Positions 5,233-32,000 of a stretch of DNA of 32,000 bases are shown piece after piece (the first letter of the stretch is position 1; every line of letters begins with the position of its first letter). The stretch covers positions 8,657 to 40,656 of IMG/VR virus record IMGVR_UViG_3300045988_126465; one strand, given 5' to 3'. Made by a program: the position numbers and the translations under genes. Source of the stretch: a virus. Under the pieces are notes generated by a model that did not search any database, had not been told where the DNA came from, and worked only from the letters and a program-made list of their open reading frames with translations.

Positions 5233-5257
5233 AAAAGGACTTTTTACAAGTCCTTTT
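5233..5257. terminator. bidirectional intrinsic terminator
   Basis: AAAAGGACTT-tttac-AAGTCCTTTT forms a 10-bp stem with an A-run and a T-run on either side. It lies between convergent genes 4676..5230(+) and 5244..5801(-). Confidence 0.7.
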
Positions 5258-5801
5258 CAATTTGTTTAAATAGTGAAGCAGTTCCGCGTGGTGCACGTTC
5301 AAACTCTTTAATAATATGTATATATTTACCATTCAATGATTTTTTACCATTCTTGTAATATATCCATGATCCTTTTATTATGCCGTATGATTCTTTTTCT
5401 ATTGCTTTTGGATGCTTGCGTGTTCCGGCCCATTCAATATATGAAAACATGCATTTTTGAAGTTTTAAAATCTTTTTTTCTTTCTTCTCTTTTTCAAGAT
5501 CTTTTTTCTTCTTTTCAAGTACCTGGATTATTTCAATTTTTGATAGTTCAATAAAATCAGGATCTAAACTATAGAAATTGGTTTCGTTGAAATATGATCC
5601 CGTATGATGCCAAGAACTACAGACTAGAAAAACTTTTAAAACTTCTTTGCTATATCTATTCAATTCATTCTCGTTAAAATCATTTCTAACATTTAAAACG
5701 CATTCAATAATATCTTTTTTAGTCCATTTTGAAAGTGGCTTTTCACCACTTTCATATGCTTCATAAGCGCGTTCACTCATTTTATTACCAATATATCCCA
5801 T
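5244..5801 (-). CDS. hypothetical protein (last gene of ArdA operon)
   Basis: 185 aa with an AGGAGG RBS. It has a conserved-looking N-terminus MSERAYEAYESGEKPLSKWTK, a SWHHTGSYFNETNFY motif and a Lys/Glu-rich linker. Confidence 0.65.
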   Translation of the reverse strand: MGYIGNKMSERAYEAYESGEKPLSKWTKKDIIECVLNVRNDFNENELNRYSKEVLKVFLVCSSWHHTGSYFNETNFYSLDPDFIELSKIEIIQVLEKKKKDLEKEKKEKKILKLQKCMFSYIEWAGTRKHPKAIEKESYGIIKGSWIYYKNGKKSLNGKYIHIIKEFERAPRGTASLFKQIEKDL

Positions 5802-5814
5802 ATCTTTTTACCTC

Positions 5815-6393
5815 CTAAAATGGAAACTCTTCAAGCATTTCATTTAATCTTTGCTGATCTGTAAGCAGCTTTTTCTTTTTCCTTGGTGCTGCTTTTTCGA
5901 TACTCATCTTTTCGATTTTACCATTATTATACACATAGCTTTCTTTAAGCTTGTTTCTATTAAAAACATCTATAGTTTTTGAATTAGTATTATAAGTAAA
6001 AAGCAAGCTTTTTGATCCAGGTTTACAGATCTTAAAAAGATCTGTATTTAAGATGTCTATATAACACTTGTAAATTTTGAAGAAATAACAGATATCTTTT
6101 ATTTCTTGAATATCTGGTGTATATAACTCTTTTTTTGCTTCTGTATTATAAAATAACTGAATATCATAGTTGAAAAGCTTATCAAGATCATGAGCGACAA
6201 AAAGCCTTAATTCATTTGTTTGAACGGCTGCATACATGCATTTATTATGATCAAACTTAAAGCTATGATCTTTTAAAATTTTTTCAGTTGAAGCGCTGGG
6301 AGTTCCTAACGCTTCAACGTAAATGTGTGGTTTCTTTCGCTCATTTGTAATATAATAATTAAAATGAGCTTTTTCACGCTTCCATGTTGTCAT
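5815..6393 (-). CDS. hypothetical protein
   Basis: 192 aa with an AGGAGG RBS. It overlaps the upstream gene by 20 nt. Confidence 0.65.
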   Translation of the reverse strand: MTTWKREKAHFNYYITNERKKPHIYVEALGTPSASTEKILKDHSFKFDHNKCMYAAVQTNELRLFVAHDLDKLFNYDIQLFYNTEAKKELYTPDIQEIKDICYFFKIYKCYIDILNTDLFKICKPGSKSLLFTYNTNSKTIDVFNRNKLKESYVYNNGKIEKMSIEKAAPRKKKKLLTDQQRLNEMLEEFPF

Positions 6394-6604
6394 TTTTAAG
6401 GCCTCCTAAAATGTCTAAAATGCATAAAGTATTTACAAGCTGCCAAAGTTCACGCGGTTTAAGCATCCAGGCCACAACGTCAAGCCCGTAAGATAAATTA
6501 TATAAACCGTTTAAATGTTTTGTTATTGTGTAAGGTTTGCAGCTAGATCCATTTAGTTGATCTAGTTTTTTTTCTGTAAATTCAATATATTCTTTGTTAT
6601 TCAT
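6374..6604 (-). CDS. hypothetical protein
   Basis: The start was chosen at the ATG at 6604 (MNNKEYIEF...), which lies 8 nt after GGAGG. The track start at 6619 lacks an RBS. Confidence 0.55.
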   Translation of the reverse strand: MNNKEYIEFTEKKLDQLNGSSCKPYTITKHLNGLYNLSYGLDVVAWMLKPRELWQLVNTLCILDILGGLKNDNMEA

Positions 6605-6606
6605 TT

Positions 6607-6879
6607 TTAAAACCTCCATTCATTATCTTCAAAAATAGTTATAACAAGTGTATAAAGTTCTTTGCTTACTTGTTTAGAATCAACTAAAAGTTGATCATAA
6701 TAAACGCGTATAACTTTTTCATTTTCGAAATAAGCAAGATCATAAACAAATGATTCAATATGATCCGCTAAACACTCATAAAGAAAATCATACACGACAA
6801 AATTACCAGAAATAAGATCATTCATATATGATCTTATTCTTGCATATTTATGCAATAACTTAACTTCTAAAAGTTCCAT
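6607..6879 (-). CDS. hypothetical protein
   Basis: 90 aa with an AGGAGG RBS. Confidence 0.6.
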   Translation of the reverse strand: MELLEVKLLHKYARIRSYMNDLISGNFVVYDFLYECLADHIESFVYDLAYFENEKVIRVYYDQLLVDSKQVSKELYTLVITIFEDNEWRF

Positions 6880-6890
6880 TGTTTAACCTC

Positions 6891-7034
6891 CTAAATAATA
6901 TAAATAGCGCATGATATCGAAAAGATTGAAAGAATTAAAACGATTGAAAAAATAAAGTATTCAATCAATCTAATAAATGCAAGCGTGAGCACCTCAGCGG
7001 TGCTCATATTGTCAAGTTTTTTACGTGTTAGCAT
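6891..7034 (-). CDS. 47-aa TM micro-protein coupled to ardA (below ORF-track cutoff)
   Basis: Its ATG overlaps the ArdA stop (ATGCTAA). My translation is MLTRKKLDNMSTAEVLTLAFIRLIEYFIFSIVLILSIFSISCAIYII. Confidence 0.4.
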   Translation of the reverse strand: MLTRKKLDNMSTAEVLTLAFIRLIEYFIFSIVLILSIFSISCAIYII

Positions 7035-7528
7035 GTGTAAATAACCCCGTTTGAAGTTTCATAATAACCATCGAAACCAAGATCACGCGCGAATGCTTTA
7101 TAGTCAAAGTATGTTTGCGCAATTTCCGGAAGGTTGTAACATTCTTCTACAATTTCATAGGCCACATCTTCCAACGTCATACCTTCATAAAAAGTATAGT
7201 TTTCACTTTCTAAGTATCCTAATGCATCCGTATAGCTGCATACTTCCATTAATGCGGTGAATTCGCTTTCATTATCTTCTAATGCTTCAGCCACTTCATT
7301 AATATCGTCAATGTTTGGATATTCACCGAATGCATCATACATATCAAATAATGAGCAATCATAATCAGTAATAAACCATTCTTCATACATTGTATTTTCT
7401 TTCACTCCAATGTTTTCGAGTTCCTTTTTAAAATCATCTTCATCGATTGGAAAATCAATCCATTTACCAACTAAATAACCCTCGTTATACTTTCCTAAAT
7501 TTGTTATATAAGCTTTCATTTCACACAT
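7028..7528 (-). CDS. ardA: antirestriction protein ArdA (DNA mimic, anti type I R-M)
   Basis: An AAGGAGG RBS sits 8 nt upstream. The N-terminus KAYITNLGKYNEGYLVGKWIDFPID and the C-terminal YFDYKAFARDLGFDG match the hallmark ArdA signature (compare Tn916 Orf18 YIANLGKYNEGELVGAWFTFPID ... YIDYQAYGRDL). The protein is strongly acidic. Confidence 0.88.
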   Translation of the reverse strand: MCEMKAYITNLGKYNEGYLVGKWIDFPIDEDDFKKELENIGVKENTMYEEWFITDYDCSLFDMYDAFGEYPNIDDINEVAEALEDNESEFTALMEVCSYTDALGYLESENYTFYEGMTLEDVAYEIVEECYNLPEIAQTYFDYKAFARDLGFDGYYETSNGVIYTC

Positions 7529-7684
7529 GATCTTTACCTCCTTAATATTCTATAGATCCCATTTGTTTTTTAAGTAAAAAGCTAAACTAGTAAAATTTAT
7601 AAATAGTGAAACATACATGATAAAATCTTTCATTGTTTGCACCGCTTAAACATGATAAAATGTAAGTAGGTAAGCTATTTGGAG

Positions 7685-7837
7685 TTAACCAAATAGCCTA
7701 TCTAAAAGCCACTCAATGGCTTTGCTACCGGATGCGCATGCGATTGAAATTATTAGGTTGAAGAATAACAATTTGAAATAATCGCGTTCGCGTCTTTTTT
7801 GTTCATATTTATGAACTCTTGATAGCTTACGTTTCAT
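7685..7837 (-). CDS. 50-aa basic/TM micro-protein (candidate)
   Basis: GAAAGGAAAAAAC precedes the ATG on the minus strand. My translation is MKRKLSRVHKYEQKRRERDYFKLLFFNLIISIACASGSKAIEWLLDRLFG. Confidence 0.35.
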   Translation of the reverse strand: MKRKLSRVHKYEQKRRERDYFKLLFFNLIISIACASGSKAIEWLLDRLFG

Positions 7838-7926
7838 GTTTTTTCCTTTCTAGTCACTTAAGACACTTACAGAATAAAACAAACGTTTTACATTGTCAAG
7901 CAAAAAATGAAATGAATGTTTGGTTA

Positions 7927-7955
7927 TTGCAAAAAAACGTTTGATATTATAAAAT
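7927..7955 (+). promoter_or_regulatory. candidate sigma-A promoter of the HTH gene with AAACGTTT palindrome in the spacer
   Basis: TTGCAA (7927-7932), then 17 nt, then TAAAAT (7950-7955). The palindrome AAACGTTT occurs at 7935-7942 and again at 7881-7888. Confidence 0.35.
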
Positions 7956-7983
7956 GAATATAGAACGGGAGGGCGCATATTAT

Positions 7984-8190
7984 ATGAAAGAAAATCAAAT
8001 TATTGCAGCACTTGCTTATGCTCATAAGAATCAACAAGATATCGCGGATTCGTTTGGATGCACCAAACAAAATATAAGTACTAGAATTAAACGCGAAAAG
8101 TTCACGGATGAAGAGCTAGAAAAAATGGCGCAAGCGATAGGCGCAAGATACAAATGCTATTTTGAATTTGAAGACGGCACGAAAATATAA
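7984..8190 (+). CDS. small helix-turn-helix DNA-binding protein (Cro/XRE-like)
   Basis: The ATG at 7984 lies 10 nt after GGGAGGG. The HTH-like segment is QQDIADSFGCTKQNISTRIKREK. Confidence 0.6.
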   Translation: MKENQIIAALAYAHKNQQDIADSFGCTKQNISTRIKREKFTDEELEKMAQAIGARYKCYFEFEDGTKI

Positions 8191-8206
8191 ACCCGTCTTT
8201 TTTTTA
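8171..8206 (+). terminator. intrinsic terminator after HTH gene
   Basis: GACGG (8173-8177) pairs with CCGTC (8193-8197) and is followed by T8. Confidence 0.5.
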
Positions 8207-8252
8207 TACTCATTTTTTCAAAAAGCTTTTTGTTTTTAAAACGTGCACGCAA

Positions 8253-8320
8253 GCGCCTATTTAAAAGGCTTTTAAGCGTGTTCGGTTGTAGTCTTATAAG
8301 ATATAGTTATAAGACTTGTG
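8253..8320 (+). repeat. copy B of the duplicated two-hairpin element (partner at 2621-2680)
   Basis: GCCTATTTAaaAGGCTTTTAA, then TAGTCTTATAAGATATAGTTATAAGAC. Hairpin 2 is a perfect 9-bp stem, GTCTTATAA / TTATAAGAC. Confidence 0.6.
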
Positions 8321-8334
8321 TATATGTACTATAT

Positions 8335-8359
8335 GGACGTGGTGAGCGTCCTTTTTTTT
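8335..8359 (+). terminator. intrinsic terminator
   Basis: GGACG-tggtgag-CGTCC followed by T8. Confidence 0.7.
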
Positions 8360-8888
8360 GTGTGGTTTGCTTCAGCTCCAGGAAGACAAGCGACACGCTG
8401 AGCGCATGACATGGTGCATATAATCCAATGTATTGAAGTAGTGAAATGTTTATTGCATATATAAGAACGTGCGCGCGTGTTCTATTAATGTAGTCATGGT
8501 CATGGTATGAAAGAACGCTTACAACAAGACATGTTGAAAAATGTTTCAACACAATAATAAATATATGAATGTCATATGATTGAAGCTGTGAGCGGTGCGG
8601 TGTGGTGGTAGCTGCATAGGTTTGATTTTTAACCCTGAAAGCGCCCAGGGCTGGGATCAGATCAGCAGATACCCCCCTATCTTTCAAAAGTTTTTTGCGT
8701 TTTGGGGAACGGCGTGGGGAGTTTAAAAAAACTGGGTCATGAGTGCATGAGAGGGGGTAAAATCTGAATTTCTTCATTTTGTACAGTGTACAAAGAAAAA
8801 CCGTGATATTCTGTAGTCGTGAAGATTGGAAAACATCTTCTAGAACAAACAAGGTAGTTCTTGGATTGTTTCATTTTAGTGCCCGTTG
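8360..8888 (+). ncRNA. candidate large structured non-coding RNA (about 530 nt) and/or cos region
   Basis: There is no credible ORF. My hand count gives about 50% G+C over 8581-8760, against AT-rich flanks. Multiple local and nested helices are present (8532-8551, 8633-8650, 8689-8696/8726-8733, 8673-8678/8752-8757). The region is bounded by + strand terminators. Strand and identity are unverified. Confidence 0.3.
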
Positions 8889-8918
8889 AAAAAGACCTGT
8901 GGAAACATGGGTCTTTTT
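8889..8918. terminator. bidirectional intrinsic terminator
   Basis: AAAAAGACC (8889-8897) pairs with GGTCTTTTT (8910-8918). Confidence 0.6.
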
Positions 8919-9010
8919 CATATCACTGCATTCAAAGTGGTTACTGTTAGTTTTTGTCGTCCTTTAAATTTGTTAACTGTAGTTATGGTCAAAACTTTGA
9001 ATGTAGCGAT

Positions 9011-9397
9011 ATGAAAAAATATTATGGTTCAGAAGCAACAAAAACAGGTGCTAGAAATTATGCTAGAAAATTTTACTCAAGCAAGGCTTGGGAAAAGAAA
9101 AGCAAATCGTATAGAAAGGCACATCCACTTTGTGAAAGATGTTTGAAAAAAGGTATCTATACCAGGTCGACTTGTGTACATCACAAAGTACACATTGACC
9201 AGGACAACTATAGAGATGTACACATTCTATTTGGCGATTCTAATTTGGAAGCGTTGTGTGACTTATGTCATGCTGAAGAACATTCCAAACGTAAACCATC
9301 TTTTGAATTTGATGAAAACGGAATGCTTATAGGATGTGGAAGGGAGGATGATGAATGCAAAAAGGAGCATGGAAAAAAAGAATCAATTCACAACTAG
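9011..9397 (+). CDS. HNH endonuclease (terminase-associated, cos-type packaging)
   Basis: It contains CERC...CVHHKVHI...NLEALCDLCHAEEH (an HNH/zinc-finger motif) and lies immediately upstream of terS. The ATG at 9011 was preferred over the TTG at 8954, so the start is uncertain. Confidence 0.8.
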   Translation: MKKYYGSEATKTGARNYARKFYSSKAWEKKSKSYRKAHPLCERCLKKGIYTRSTCVHHKVHIDQDNYRDVHILFGDSNLEALCDLCHAEEHSKRKPSFEFDENGMLIGCGREDDECKKEHGKKESIHN

Positions 9398-9729
9398 AGA
9401 ATTTAGGCACATTTTCTCCTGAATATTCGGTTGCGGTTGATTCACTTGCAGATGCCTTGGCCCAATATGATTCAACAATGAAGCAATGGAGAGATTCAAG
9501 TAAAGCAAATGGCTACAAATCACTACAGATGGTTGTTGAATATACGAACAAGGGCGGTGCAACGAATTTATCGCGCTCACCATACTACATTATTACCGTT
9601 CAATTACGTGATCAAATTATGAAATACTGCAAAGAACTTGGCTTGTCACCTACTTCACTTTCAAAAACAACAGAAGTATCCGGAAAAAAAGGTGATGAAT
9701 TGGATGAGTTCATGAGCAGATTTAAATGA
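9355..9729 (+). CDS. terS: terminase small subunit (P27-like)
   Basis: 124 aa between HNH and TerL, with an ATGA overlap with terL. Its size and position are typical of the P27 family. The family call is from memory. Confidence 0.7.
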   Translation: MQKGAWKKRINSQLENLGTFSPEYSVAVDSLADALAQYDSTMKQWRDSSKANGYKSLQMVVEYTNKGGATNLSRSPYYIITVQLRDQIMKYCKELGLSPTSLSKTTEVSGKKGDELDEFMSRFK

Positions 9730-11384
9730 AATATCTAGACATTTATAAAGAACGTATTAAATCGGGTGAAGATGTAGTCGGTAAGTGGATAAAACTTAAT
9801 CTTCAATATGTTGAAAGAGGTTTAGCAAATGGAGATTTCTTCTATGATGAGAAAAAAGCGGAAATGCATATAGCGTTTATTGAAACGTTTTGTCATCACG
9901 TAGAAGGAAAAACAACAAAAGTAAAGCTTGAGCCTTGGCAAAAATACTATATTGCGTGCATATTCGGACTTGTTGATAAGAATGGAAAAAGGCAGTTTCG
10001 TGAAATACCTACGGTAATGGGCCGAAAACAAGGAAAATCATTTCTTTGTGCAGGTATTGAACTTGATGTTGGATTTACATCTGATGAAGCAGGTATGCAG
10101 ATATACAATATAGCTCCAAAGTTAAAACAAGCGCAGATCATTTACAATGTTCTGTATCAAATGATGGAACACTCTAAGGCATTGAGTCAAAGAGTAAAAA
10201 AACGTAGAACGGATATCTACATGAAACAGAATAACTGTAGATGGGAACCAATTGCCTTTGCATCTAAAAAATCAGATGGATTCAACCCATATTTGACGAT
10301 ATTTGATGAGTTTGCAGCCTGGGAAGGTGAAGCGGGTATGAAAATGTACAACGTTATGTTGTCGGCAGGTGGTGCAAGACCTGATCCACTTTATATTCCT
10401 GTAAGTACCGCAAACTATATTGATGAAGGATTATATGATGAATTATTTGTTCGTGGAACATCCGTTTTACTTGGTACGTCTGATGAAAAACAAATGTTGC
10501 CTTTCTTTTATATGATTGATGATATTCAAAAATGGGATGATCCTATTGAATTAAGAAAAGCAATGCCAAACCTTGGAATATCGGTTTCTTATGAATATTT
10601 GCAGAATGAAATTTTAAAAGCACATAGCTCACCGACATATAAGGCGGAGTTTATAACAAAATATGCGAATATCAAACAGAATTCAACGGAAGCGTTATTT
10701 AGTGCAGAAGATATTAACAAAGTTAAAGGTGAAGAACTTAGATTTGAAGATTTTGCACATACATATGCAGTTGGTGGAATTGACTTGTCACAAACAACAG
10801 ATTTAACAGCCGCATCTGTAGTTATACGAATTCAAGAACAGGACTACATATTTACTCATTTTTGGCTTCCAACATTAAAAATCAAGGAGCTAGAGGAAAG
10901 AGACAAGATACCATATACAAGATTTATTCAATTGGGATATTTAAGTCCAAGTGGGGAAAACTTTGTACGGTATGAAGATGTTACGGAATGGTTTGAAATG
11001 CTACGTAAGAAATACAAGATTTATTGCGTGGTCGTTGGATATGACCGTTATTCGGCTCAGTATCTTGTGGATGATATGAAGAAATATGGATACAAGATGG
11101 ATGATGTCATTCAGGGTACTAACCTTACACCGGTTATTAATGAATTTACAGGATACGTAAGAGATGGATTTGTTCATACAGGAACAAATGGATTATTACA
11201 AGCACATATGTCTAGTGTGGCATTAAAAAAAGTTGCGGAGGACAATCGTGTACGCATGATTAAAACTGATCCAAGAAAACATATTGATGGGTATGCATCT
11301 GTTATTGATGCATATACAGTAAGACAAAAATGGTGGGATACTTTTAAATACCGCCTTGAAAACAAGAAAAGGAAGGTGAATTAG
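9726..11384 (+). CDS. terL: terminase large subunit
   Basis: 552 aa. Walker A-like MGRKQGKS, the DEF(A) Walker B motif at IFDEFAAW, and a C-terminal nuclease region (GGIDLSQTTD...). The synteny is canonical. Confidence 0.93.
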   Translation: MKYLDIYKERIKSGEDVVGKWIKLNLQYVERGLANGDFFYDEKKAEMHIAFIETFCHHVEGKTTKVKLEPWQKYYIACIFGLVDKNGKRQFREIPTVMGRKQGKSFLCAGIELDVGFTSDEAGMQIYNIAPKLKQAQIIYNVLYQMMEHSKALSQRVKKRRTDIYMKQNNCRWEPIAFASKKSDGFNPYLTIFDEFAAWEGEAGMKMYNVMLSAGGARPDPLYIPVSTANYIDEGLYDELFVRGTSVLLGTSDEKQMLPFFYMIDDIQKWDDPIELRKAMPNLGISVSYEYLQNEILKAHSSPTYKAEFITKYANIKQNSTEALFSAEDINKVKGEELRFEDFAHTYAVGGIDLSQTTDLTAASVVIRIQEQDYIFTHFWLPTLKIKELEERDKIPYTRFIQLGYLSPSGENFVRYEDVTEWFEMLRKKYKIYCVVVGYDRYSAQYLVDDMKKYGYKMDDVIQGTNLTPVINEFTGYVRDGFVHTGTNGLLQAHMSSVALKKVAEDNRVRMIKTDPRKHIDGYASVIDAYTVRQKWWDTFKYRLENKKRKVN

Positions 11385-12658
11385 TGGCTAAAAGCAGAAG
11401 AAAAAGATTTGGTTTGCTAGGAAGTCTATTAGGACTAAATAAGCCAGCACCTAAACAAAATCAATTACACTCTATGTTTGCAAGCTTAGGTGGATATTCA
11501 CCAGTGTATTCATCATATGATGGTGGAATATATGAGATTGGACTATGCAGAGCATGTATCAATCGAATTGCTACATCATGTGGGAAGGCTTCACCTGAAC
11601 TGACAAACAAAGACTACAAAGCTAAGATATATAACTATTTGGTTAAGAAAAAGCCAAATCCTTATATGACAGCTAGTCAATTTTACAAAAGATTGGCAAC
11701 TATCTATTTTGCAGAAAACAATGCTTTCATTATTCCGATTGAAGATGAATATGGAATGATAAAGGGATTGTGGCCCGCAGTACCAAGTCAGTGTCAATTA
11801 AAAGAAATCAATGGTGTAGTTTATATTTATTTTAATTTCATCTATGGCGAAACAAAATTGATTGAATACAGCAAGGTAGGGCATTTAAGACAAATGCAGT
11901 ATAAAAATGATTACTTTGGTGATACCAATGATGCATTTGATACAACAGCTAAATTGATGCTTGCTCAGGAAGAAGGAGCAATTAATGCGATTAAGTCGAG
12001 TTCTATTGTTCGATTCTTAGCTAAAATTTCAACACCAATTGACGATGATGAGGATTATAAAGAACAACAAAACATGATCTTGAGAAATAACCTGAACAAA
12101 AATGAAACAGGTGTATTCCTTGTCGACAATCGATTTGATGAAGTAAAACCGATTGAAAGTAAACCACTATTAGTGGATGCCAAGCAGAAGCAGGCAATTG
12201 AAAATAGTGTATACAGCTATTTTGGAATTAGTGAAGCTATTTTACAAAATAAATATAAACCTGATGAATGGAATGCATTTTATGAATCAATTATCGAGCC
12301 TTTCTTTATTGAAGTTGGAGAAGTGTTGAGTGGAATGTTATATTCCGTAAATCAGATTATGAATGGTAGTGAAATCATTCTTACAAGTGATCGTTTACAG
12401 TATGATTCGACACAAACAAAATTAAATGTTGCGACTCAAATGTTCGATAGAGGAATGATTGATACAAACGGGGCATTAAATATTATGAACAAAGCGCCTT
12501 TACCAGATGATGAAGGTAAGAAACGTTTTATTCGAGGTGAATATATCCAGGTAACTAAATCGAATCAAGGAGGAATTGGTTACAATGGGGAAACCGAACC
12601 ACAGCAAAATCCAAATGCGCTCGATCCCGTTCCAAATGAACCCGGTGACGGAAAATAA
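11384..12658 (+). CDS. portal protein (HK97 family-like)
   Basis: 424 aa, starting at a GTG coupled to the terL stop. It sits between TerL and the prohead protease. Confidence 0.88.
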   Translation: MAKSRRKRFGLLGSLLGLNKPAPKQNQLHSMFASLGGYSPVYSSYDGGIYEIGLCRACINRIATSCGKASPELTNKDYKAKIYNYLVKKKPNPYMTASQFYKRLATIYFAENNAFIIPIEDEYGMIKGLWPAVPSQCQLKEINGVVYIYFNFIYGETKLIEYSKVGHLRQMQYKNDYFGDTNDAFDTTAKLMLAQEEGAINAIKSSSIVRFLAKISTPIDDDEDYKEQQNMILRNNLNKNETGVFLVDNRFDEVKPIESKPLLVDAKQKQAIENSVYSYFGISEAILQNKYKPDEWNAFYESIIEPFFIEVGEVLSGMLYSVNQIMNGSEIILTSDRLQYDSTQTKLNVATQMFDRGMIDTNGALNIMNKAPLPDDEGKKRFIRGEYIQVTKSNQGGIGYNGETEPQQNPNALDPVPNEPGDGK

Positions 12659-13196
12659 ACGGATTGATACTCAGTACTATGTTGAAGGATATGCTACAAC
12701 ATTTGAGCCTTATGTTCTTTATCGAGATTATGAAGGTAATGATGTATATGAGTTGATTGAGCGTTCAAGTTTGGACAACGCTGATATGAGTGATATCATC
12801 TTCCAATTTGATCATGGAGGAATGGTATATGCACGTACAAGCAATGGTTCACTTATTGTTGAAGTAGATGAACATGGATTGTTTGTTGCAGCAGATTTAG
12901 GAAGAACAGAAGCTGCAAAACGTTTGTACGACAGTATTCAGGCAGGAATGGTTACTCAGATGTCATGGCGATACATGGTGGATGAGGAATCATATGATAG
13001 AGATAAAAAGACGTGGACAACACGTAAAGTATCAAAAATTTATGATGTTTCGGCAGTCTCGATTCCTGCAAATGATCAAACGTCTATTGAAGCAAGGGCA
13101 AAGTCTTTAATGGATGAAGAACGGACTAAAAAAGAAAATGAAAAGAAACGAGAAAGACTGAGTTTGTTGTTGCAGATTAAGGAGGCTATTAATTAA
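12585..13196 (+). CDS. prohead maturation protease (HK97 family, S78-like)
   Basis: An AAGGAGG at 12567-12573 precedes the ATG at 12585. The segment YYVEGYATTFEPY...IFQFDHGG is typical of the prohead protease N-terminus. The C-terminus is Lys/Glu-rich. Confidence 0.82.
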   Translation: MGKPNHSKIQMRSIPFQMNPVTENKRIDTQYYVEGYATTFEPYVLYRDYEGNDVYELIERSSLDNADMSDIIFQFDHGGMVYARTSNGSLIVEVDEHGLFVAADLGRTEAAKRLYDSIQAGMVTQMSWRYMVDEESYDRDKKTWTTRKVSKIYDVSAVSIPANDQTSIEARAKSLMDEERTKKENEKKRERLSLLLQIKEAIN

Positions 13197-31946: not shown

Positions 31947-32000
31947 GGTCCAGTGGTGTAGTGGTTAACATGCCTCCCTGTCACGGAGGAGATCGTGGGT
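31947..32000 (+). tRNA. tRNA-Asp (anticodon GTC), truncated at window end
   Basis: My manual cloverleaf: acceptor GGTCCAG, D-arm GTGT/ACAT, anticodon stem CCTCC/GGAGG with loop CTGTCAC, and the start of the T-arm GTGGG. Confidence 0.85.

Follow-up and report, generated by a model that had tools for sequence, protein, structure and literature searches.

A probable cos packaging site flanked by transcription-control sequences in the gene-free gap ahead of the HNH gene of an uncultivated phage

What fills the gene-free gap of ~820 nucleotides (nt) that lies directly ahead of the HNH endonuclease gene in an uncultivated virus? The gap (8191-9010) belongs to a 32,000-nt stretch of IMG/VR record IMGVR_UViG_3300045988_126465 (positions 8,657 to 40,656 of that record), which comes from an A+T-rich tailed phage or prophage and is called the window here; the gap is bounded by a gene for a 78-amino-acid (aa) helix-turn-helix (HTH) protein (7954-8190) and by HNH (ATG at 9011). 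An initial annotation had proposed that the gap encodes one large ornate RNA of the ROOL/GOLLD class and had offered a cohesive-end (cos) site as an alternative that did not exclude the first. Its estimate of about 50% G+C for 8581-8760 was accurate, the value being exactly 0.50 compared with 0.329 for the window. Our analysis indicates that the region is very probably the cos packaging site of an HNH-dependent cos phage or prophage (HK97-type module), with transcription-control sequences on both sides.

Two sets of relatives were used. The close group consists of 63 IMG/VR loci in which HNH is 91-99% identical and the gap DNA is 85-93% identical, a divergence that provides sufficient variation for structure testing. 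Sister lineages were sampled through HNH homologs at 53-76% identity, and a gene-free gap of 600-1270 nt upstream of HNH is present in every one of them. HNH homologs as a whole fall into 109 protein clusters.

Virion-derived DNA ends at 8709 and 8721. Two IMG/VR contigs (L006 and L039) have a first base equivalent to 8721, and L023 starts 4 bases inside that position. In L012 and L021, the Illumina TruSeq read-2 and read-1 adapters, respectively, are joined straight to the G of 8721 (GTTYAAAAAAACT...). A 26.7-kb Logan contig from another lineage and another dataset (L149, HNH 65% identical) starts at the homologous G. Left ends therefore fall at 8721 to 8725 in six contigs, two of them adapter-fused and one from an independent lineage. 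The opposite end of the 44,713-nt contig of L021 is L109, which terminates ...TTTCGGGGAA at 8709 and continues into an A-tail and the AGATCGGAAGAGC adapter. Between these two contig ends, the 11 nt at 8710-8720 (CGGCGTGGGGA) are absent; they are present in read-through contigs. Since the blunted ends are separated by a gap rather than sharing an overlap, the missing bases most likely represent 3' overhangs trimmed by end repair, and this gap in one contig points to 11-nt 3' cohesive ends of sequence 5'-CGGCGTGGGGA. These ends and adapter junctions place cleavage in the G-rich tract that the initial annotation had nominated as the cohesive end; that assignment stands, with the tract itself at 8704-8721, one base away from where it had been put. 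The features of the cleavage site are listed below.

8704-8721, unstranded: cos core GGGGAACGGCGTGGGGAG, near-invariant in ~55 close homologs.
8710-8720, + strand: putative 11-nt 3' cohesive end 5'-CGGCGTGGGGA-3', from the contig ends at 8721 and 8709.
8672-8677, unstranded: C6 run that flanks cos symmetrically on the left, 38 bp from position 8715, the centre of the overhang.
8753-8757, unstranded: G5 run, the counterpart of the C6 run on the right of cos and likewise 38 bp from 8715.
8758-8803, unstranded: highly conserved block containing TGTACAGTGTACA, with 2 of 46 columns variable among 63 homologs.

The core is kept with at most three substitutions in seven further lineages (L142, L146, L148, L150, L154, L155, and L156), where the flanking sequence is unalignable. 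Together with its symmetric flanks, it recurs in ~8 lineages that share the HNH-TerS-TerL gene order (Solobacterium, Erysipelotrichaceae, and Eubacterium assemblies). A run of five to seven C residues lies 24-27 bp to the left of the core in ~8 lineages, and a run of four to six G residues, within GGGGG(G)TA, lies 30-31 bp to its right in six, L156 having GGCGG instead. Two of the pairings proposed earlier as RNA helices, CCCCCT/AGGGGG and AGTTTTTT/AAAAAACT, bracket the mapped cut and are thus better regarded as symmetry elements of a DNA cleavage site. We know of no lambda counterpart to the C-run and G-run at +/-38 bp. Just to the right of the cut, a hypervariable patch (8739-8751) separates the invariant core from the G5 run; its alleles include CATGAGTGCATGA, CATGTGTGTGTGACA, and CATGCGCGTACGA.

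The initial annotation had objected that a cos site alone rarely needs ~700 nt. This was a fair point; the rest of the gap is accounted for by two upstream terminators, a spacer, and a structured mRNA leader of ~200 nt, the last of which runs past the right boundary drawn earlier, to 9018. The alignments point clearly to purifying selection on the DNA to the right of cos (8761-9018): mean pairwise identity over 8761-9012 is 0.962, well over that of synonymous sites (0.89-0.92). The leader contains the following features.

8804-8812, + strand: extended -10 promoter-like motif TGATATTCT (TGnTATNNT), 0 of 9 columns variable in the close group.
8821-8840, + strand: 5' stem-loop (SL1; GAAGAT/ATCTTC with a purine-rich loop), 0 of 20 columns variable in the close group.
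8843-8872, + strand: second leader stem-loop (SL2), tentative, from the minimum free energy (MFE) fold; comparable hairpins elsewhere are unalignable.
8887-8920, + strand: intrinsic terminator located past cos and before HNH; a perfect inverted repeat of 11 bp that runs into U5, -20.6 kcal/mol.
8914-8938, + strand: 5' arm of a long helix (terminator U-tract plus CATATCACTGCATTCAAAGT), from pairing and covariation.
8994-9018, + strand: 3' arm of the long helix, holding the HNH ATG (9011-9013) and codons 2-3, from pairing and covariation.

Comparative evidence argues firmly for a fold of the + strand RNA with three elements: the 5' stem-loop, the intrinsic terminator, and a helix of 21-25 bp in which the HNH start codon is buried. 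Promoter motif, SL1, terminator, and long helix occur as one architecture in at least seven lineages, and the terminator and long helix occur together in nine. The motif RTGATATNNTGTA, found in seven lineages, stands a constant 6-7 nt ahead of SL1 at distances of 100 to 205 nt from cos, and is also present in lineages that lack the window-type cos core. The arms of SL1 covary across lineages: GAAGAT/ATCTTC in the window corresponds to GTAAAGAA/TTCTTTAC, GTGGAGAA/TTCTCCAC, GTAGAGAA/TTCTCTAT, and GCGAAGAT/ATCTTCGT elsewhere. An equivalent terminator is found in nine lineages as a hairpin of -10 to -21 kcal/mol with a U-tract, different in sequence in each, and within the close group its 8896/8911 pair shows compensatory change from C-G to U-A or U-G. 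The terminator scan missed 8887-8920 because its loop exceeds 8 nt. The leader as a whole (8819-9030) has an MFE z score of -4.55. An Rfam scan of the leaders of the window and eight sister lineages returned no family match; the leader thus defines a small structured family, absent from Rfam and present in at least nine lineages, that consists of a terminator and then a start-codon-hiding helix. We also considered TGATATNNTGTA as a recurrent phage promoter and rejected it, as the window holds one exact copy and one-mismatch matches occur at chance level.

The long helix spans 21-25 bp, encloses a loop of 18-94 nt, and has a 3' arm ending ...ATATGAAAA. Stems anchored at the ATG score z = 4.9-12.8 against dinucleotide shuffles in each of nine lineages. 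Although the inner arms are 28% identical between lineages, cognate arms pair with a mean of -18.6 kcal/mol compared with -5.3 kcal/mol for non-cognate arms. On a MAFFT alignment of loop-trimmed constructs picked by pairing, in which two sequences are off register, 86.7% of cells are paired, both-sided changes occur in 11 of 21 pairs, and the covariation score is 0.430 versus 0.209 in shuffles; none of 500 shuffles reaches 0.430, and slid controls score clearly lower. The helix contains 20 G.U pairs versus 3 A.C, an excess indicating that it forms in + strand RNA. In the close group, variable columns are concentrated in the loop (23 of 55) rather than the arms (3 of 50), and a U-to-C change at position 9004 faces G8928. 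The leader therefore shows what fold-back of a coding transcript predicts, namely a start codon inside the helix and covariation on the coding strand.

Two ways in which the start codon could be reached were tried and set aside. Translational coupling through a leader peptide ending in an ATGA overlap was rejected, the frame being open in the window only, and an IS10-style conserved promoter was not found within the long-helix loop, the loops sharing only a pyrimidine-rich TCCTTTAAA-like motif. This motif (TCCTTTAAA, CTCCTTT, or ATCCTCCTC) lies in the variable loop at 8959-8968 in the window and in L142, L146, L153, L154, and L157. It resembles an anti-Shine-Dalgarno sequence, and no obvious Shine-Dalgarno sequence accompanies the start of HNH in the window.

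Could 8758-9018 instead act mainly as double-stranded DNA, with cosB-like small-terminase binding and bending sites that start packaging, and not as an RNA leader? In lambda, cosB sits between cosN and the terminase genes. Conservation is 96-98% in the block at 8758-8803, which lies 40-90 bp from the cut, and TGTACAGTGTACA is both a repeat and a palindrome, as is typical of protein-binding sites; lambda TerS binds cosB sequences beside cosN, where cleavage occurs (PMC13595911). A protein that binds double-stranded DNA preserves sequence and not complementarity, however, whereas the arms of the helix, SL1, and terminator differ among lineages yet still pair. The preference for G.U over A.C is specific to one strand, as RNA predicts, and the spacing from the TGATAT motif to SL1 is constant while that to cos is not, with both elements persisting beside different cos types. 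We therefore consider a mainly DNA-level role possible for this segment as a whole but clearly less probable than an RNA leader. For 8758-8803, DNA and RNA roles are compatible, and the block is a candidate small-terminase (cosB-like) site, a candidate operator upstream of the promoter, or both. It is common to the L142 and L146 lineages and not to L150 or L154. Similarity of TerS was uninformative as a predictor of its conservation, with identities of 31%-49%.

To the left of cos, the picture is one of terminators followed by rapidly changing DNA.

8172-8207, + strand: probable terminator of the HTH gene (AGACGG...CCGTCT, then T8), read directly from the letters and coinciding with the mosaic junction 8171/8198.
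8335-8359, + strand: intrinsic terminator (GGACGT...GCGTCC, then T8), from the terminator scan; stem 8335-8351.
8360-8669, unstranded: non-coding, fast-evolving spacer of 310 nt at the putative right end of virion DNA, with no conserved ORF (open reading frame).
8532-8551, unstranded: 8-bp inverted repeat TGTTGAAA/TTTCAACA with a 4-nt loop, the stem near-invariant and the loop variable among 53 homologs.

The first of these is the weakest of the three terminators because its loop is 15 nt. The initial annotation was right that two + strand terminators flank the middle of the gap: 8335-8351 with its T8 and 8887-8920 are both real, and both 8335-8359 and 8887-8920 combine a hairpin and U-tract with compensatory change, as expected of rho-independent terminators. 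In the 8335-8351 stem, one pair (148-154 of alignment A1) is UG in 28 homologs, UA in 17, and GC in 7.

Judging from these alignments, the left part of the gap evolves at least as fast as synonymous sites. Mean pairwise identity over 8199-8669 is 0.842, whereas third codon positions are 0.893 in HNH, 0.888 in TerS, 0.921 in TerL, and 0.906 in portal; the spacer itself ranges from 0.75 to 0.88 versus 0.89-0.92 at synonymous (third codon) sites. Taken alone, 8360-8669 is not unusually structured (MFE z = -1.61). The equivalent of ~8260-8477 is deleted in L046, L050, and L069. Losses or replacements of ~160-200 nt of the left spacer are seen in these natural variants and in L002, and this segment is thus dispensable. 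In sister lineages 8199-8669 is unalignable and the only shared k-mer is the C-run, and in every lineage the non-coding DNA left of cos measures 300 nt or more.

No believable ORF was reported for this stretch at the outset, and we agree: the whole of 8191-9010 is non-coding. The one long candidate, 8307-8852 on the - strand, was rejected as a gene. It has no Pfam or PHROG match and is fully open in the window alone; among 55 aligned homologs, two keep it largely open (174 and 157 codons) and the remaining ~50 have it interrupted.

Two symmetric elements within the left part merit description. The inverted repeat at 8532-8551 belongs to a set of three 8-bp half-sites (8517-8551) ~170 bp left of cos, namely TT(T/A)CAACA at 8517-8524, TGTTGAAA, and TTTCAACA, which might be bound by a protein or fold into alternative hairpins. 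A perfect 10-bp palindrome, AGTCTTATAA-N7-TTATAAGACT (8290-8316), sits in the interval from the first to the second upstream terminator. Only its outer AGTCT/AGACT arms are retained in most homologs; it could be an operator or a hairpin.

A function for the spacer beyond that of a non-coding end was weighed. It might encode a lineage-specific small RNA, carry Chi-like sites, or hold cosQ-like packaging-termination signals, so as to protect or process the genome end that is injected first. GCGCGTG is the Chi sequence of L. lactis and AGCGG that of B. subtilis, and both motifs occur in the window, where the + strand of the spacer is G-rich (GC skew +0.15 to +0.28). The constrained stem of the palindrome at 8532-8551 and the presence of 300 nt or more of non-coding DNA left of cos in all lineages would also suit such a role. 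The Chi-like motifs are nevertheless unconserved in 53 close homologs, the G-skew and k-mers are not common to the six lineages compared (which led us to reject Chi-like protection of the right end), and the segment diverges at or above the neutral rate and is partly deleted in natural variants. We regard these functions as quite unlikely.

The proposal of a single ROOL/GOLLD-class ornate noncoding RNA of ~530-750 nt, transcribed between the terminators at 8359 and 8920, fares considerably worse. Its appeal is understandable: the region is long, gene-free, and G+C-enriched in a phage, gaps of 600-1270 nt recur upstream of HNH in all sister lineages, and the + strand of 8360-8920 has an MFE z score of -3.36. 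This last value bears out the reported density of structure, which is due to the terminators, the cos symmetry, and the leader. Likewise, all of the helices listed in the initial annotation are present in the sequence, with uneven comparative support; CCCTG/CAGGG, for instance, is broken without compensation in ~20 homologs. ROOL (RF03087) averages 581 nt, and covarying multistem junctions and pseudoknots define ROOL and GOLLD (PMC5737381). The gap resembles ROOL and GOLLD (RF01998) in its phage or prophage context and in being long and gene-free, and differs in lacking a model match and covarying junctions and in being split by a DNA end. A cmscan search of the whole window against Rfam 15 at gathering thresholds returned only a partial tRNA at 31947. 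At E<=10, a search of 7900-9200 found no ROOL or GOLLD and yielded weak sub-gathering matches, mostly to eukaryotic microRNA and long noncoding RNA models with a few bacterial small RNA models; one of these, with 25.5 bits versus a gathering score of 64, was to the Streptococcus small RNA SSRC34, which is encoded upstream of a mannose phosphotransferase gene and was rejected as unrelated. RNAalifold applied to 53 homologs of 8199-8725 gave a covariation term of -1.88 kcal/mol. Double-sided changes were found in 4 of 83 consensus pairs, chiefly in two local hairpins of which the terminator at 8335-8351 is the clearest, and long-range pairs were invariant or changed on one side only; the multistem junctions and pseudoknots with covariation expected of ROOL and GOLLD are absent from this consensus. 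Conservation in distant hosts, another trait of those RNAs, is also lacking, as the left 470 nt are unalignable in sister lineages. The left part of the proposed RNA (8360-8669) has a z score of only -1.61, diverges faster than synonymous sites, is partly deleted in nature, and has no k-mers in common bar the C-run, and the genome end at 8709/8721 bisects the whole. With no Rfam match at a useful threshold, scant covariation (-1.9 kcal/mol), a fast-evolving left part, and a DNA end through its middle, the large RNA is highly improbable.

An artefact of assembly or library preparation as the source of the coincident contig ends, with the phage not being a cos phage, is scarcely credible: a homopolymer (A7) just past 8721 might break assemblies and most of the evidence comes from one IMG/VR dataset (3300045988), but read-1 and read-2 adapters are both joined to the same base, the other end of one such contig likewise runs into adapter, 11 nt short, a Logan contig of an independent lineage has its end at the homologous base, and the site is the sole sequence kept across ~8 lineages, beside a cos-typical HNH-TerS-TerL module.

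For the cos site with flanking transcription control, which we favor, the following sequence of events can be proposed. TerS/TerL and the adjacent HNH protein would nick the concatemer at 8709/8710 and 8720/8721, 11 nt apart, leaving 3' overhangs. The segment 8199-8669 would then form the right genome end, with two + strand terminators closing rightward transcription, followed by the fast-evolving spacer. In the circular, concatemeric, or prophage form, the terminators at ~8172-8207 and 8335-8359 would halt rightward transcription from the right arm. Beyond the cut, the extended -10 promoter at 8804-8812 is predicted to start a transcript near 8819, and most transcripts would stop at 8920 to give an RNA of ~100 nt. 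The terminator at 8887-8920, with the two upstream terminators, would insulate the packaging genes from read-through across cos. If most transcripts do end at 8920, late expression would need antitermination, by analogy to lambda PR'-tR'-Q or to Tn916 (PMC11658703). On read-through transcripts, HNH would stay translationally closed as long as the helix is neither melted nor cleaved, RNase III being one candidate for cleavage. Duplexes of 21-25 bp are plausible substrates for this enzyme. Such gating would hold a potentially harmful nuclease low until late infection. From its predicted structure, the leader thus probably serves in insulation or antitermination combined with translational gating, and the arrangement points to insulation of packaging-nuclease expression both at transcription and at translation.

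In a bolder version, HNH-type cos phages would have in 8804-9018 a late switch that is based on RNA and has not been described before, in which SL1 acts in cis to carry transcription past the terminator and an RNase III-type helix gates HNH. By analogy, SL1 (in an RNA of roughly 8819-8920) might work in the manner of put or canT, or as the target of a further factor. We consider this switch unlikely, if worth stating. The terminated RNA of ~100 nt might also act in trans from a prophage.

The proposed site can be set beside known systems. HNH-dependent cos packaging, involving HK97 gp74 with gp1/gp2, is described for many phages (Kala et al. 2014, as cited in PMC13595911). As in the HK97-type module, the HNH gene here adjoins TerS and TerL, and the ends are fixed with short, G+C-rich, putative 3' overhangs; cleavage here may likewise depend on HNH. 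HK97 gp74 adjoins the terminase genes in the circularized form only (PMC13595911), so the HK97 ends lie between HNH and TerS. Here, in contrast, the order is cos-HNH-TerS-TerL, with cos ~300 nt upstream of HNH. The closest cultured relatives that were found, Lactobacillus phages iA2 and PLE2 (HNH <40% identical), have HNH at the extreme right end, 21 nt from the terminus.

The lambda cohesive overhang has 5' polarity. Like lambda cos (cosQ-cosN-cosB), the site has a two-fold symmetric core, conserved DNA between the cut and terminase, and a cut surrounded by several hundred bp of non-coding DNA; unlike it, the overhangs here are probably 3' and 11 nt long, and no TerS or IHF sites were identified in the region. 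The lambda overhang is 12 nt (PMC13595911).

Late control in lambda comprises the PR' promoter, the 6S RNA, the tR' terminator, and antitermination by Q. A promoter-like element with a terminator within ~100 nt, upstream of late or packaging genes, is also what we find here, and the likeness predicts a short terminated RNA in the absence of antitermination. The differences are that the promoter lies downstream of cos and not upstream of lysis genes, and that no Q homolog was found in the scanned ORFs. Tn916 carries an insulating terminator, T1, and a cis-acting RNA antiterminator, canT (PMC11658703). Like the present region, it is a Firmicute mobile element with a terminator near one end that blocks read-through into genes silent until the element is circular or activated. 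Tn916 itself bypasses its terminator via structured RNA, and antitermination by SL1/SL2 would be a hypothetical parallel. Start-codon-occluding mRNA leaders are known from the fold-back inhibition of IS10 and from RNase III-processed phage leaders. As in the IS10 type, a long-range helix joins an upstream segment to the start, and transcripts entering from upstream would be translationally silent. Here, unlike there, the loop yielded no internal promoter from which an mRNA free of the helix could arise, the helix has the greater length (21-25 bp), and the U-tract of the terminator is part of its 5' arm.

Several points weigh against the favored account. The right end at 8709 is known from one contig (L109), a second adapter-junction search found no right end beyond it, and in a metagenome scan 27 of 27 homologs read through cos. 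Three leader-bearing lineages (L143, L153, and L157) have no G-tract core, so that cos type and leader are separable. A generic sigma-70 scan did not list the motif at 8804-8812, and no -35 element was found; promoter activity, the start near 8819, and terminator activity are predicted from sequence. Neither a conserved leader ORF nor a conserved promoter in the long-helix loop was found to explain release of the start codon. No Q-like family or antiterminator was found among the nine ORFs of 5244-12658, the rest of the window not having been searched for Q. Finally, the favored account does not cover the 310-nt spacer (8360-8669) or its conserved palindrome (8532-8551).

Elements of all three kinds seen here (cos sites, terminators, and occluding helices) are well established, and the result is useful but will not surprise specialists; what is unusual is the precision with which termini were mapped from public assemblies. 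A precise, testable annotation replaces a tempting but wrong call of a giant phage RNA, and exact termini and a putative overhang are provided for a common group of uncultivated human-gut phages. This allows genomes of ~44-47 kb to be oriented and their completeness judged, and should aid recognition of cos-based satellites and transduction. The IMG/VR contigs of sample 3300045988 keep Illumina adapter at their ends (L012:1-36, L021:1-21, and the last 14 nt of L109, in reverse orientation). Leftover adapter is a contamination artefact and also a tag of true virion DNA termini, and systematic mining of it could map phage ends.

The nine ORFs around the gap (5244-12658) were scanned against Pfam and PHROG. 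HNH, TerS, TerL, and portal all adjoin the candidate cos site by both sets of families, as the following list shows.

7954-8190, + strand: small HTH protein gene (78 aa) closing the right arm; PHROG 38278, with weak Pfam matches to CI-repressor HTH and Sigma70_r4, both under curated cut-offs.
9011-9397, + strand: HNH endonuclease, the first gene past cos; Pfam HNH, PHROG 144.
9355-9729, + strand: TerS, P27-type small terminase; Pfam Terminase_4, PHROG 361.
9726-11384, + strand: TerL, large terminase; Pfam TerL_ATPase/TerL_nuclease, PHROG 9.
11384-12658, + strand: portal; Pfam Phage_portal, PHROG 12.
7028-7528, - strand: ArdA antirestriction gene, in a leftward operon beside the packaging region; Pfam E = 1e-34.

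At the position of the 78-aa HTH gene, L150 and L154 have a 68-aa gene. Many relatives carry different genes there, and in ~40 loci homology begins only at 8171-8199. DNA searches of the INPHARED phage collection with the gap and with 7000-13000 gave no match, and HNH is at most 47% identical to any HNH of a cultured phage. Names attached to related contigs are Solobacterium sp. (a metagenome-assembled genome, HNH 95% identical), Erysipelotrichaceae bacterium, Absicoccus intestinalis, Eubacterium sp. TM05-53, and Waltera intestinalis.

Public calls of HNH (P0001-P0006) are 138-189 aa long, and the conserved start MKKYYG gives 128 aa. Over-extension by gene callers runs upstream into the structured leader, for example from TTG 8954 (8954-9010), and that extension is unconserved across sister lineages; it is a recurrent annotation error that we flag here.

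The partial tRNA noted above (31947-32000, + strand, 35.5 bits) is truncated by the window end and was not called by ARAGORN; it could represent a phage-encoded tRNA or proximity to an attachment site. In L150 (Logan ERR10101829_60060), positions 65-133 on the - strand, ~1.4 kb upstream of HNH, give a full-model match to the type-P1 twister ribozyme RF03160 with E = 2e-7 and 46.3 bits, compared with a gathering score of 67.2. ArdA is also present in L154, at the equivalent relative position.

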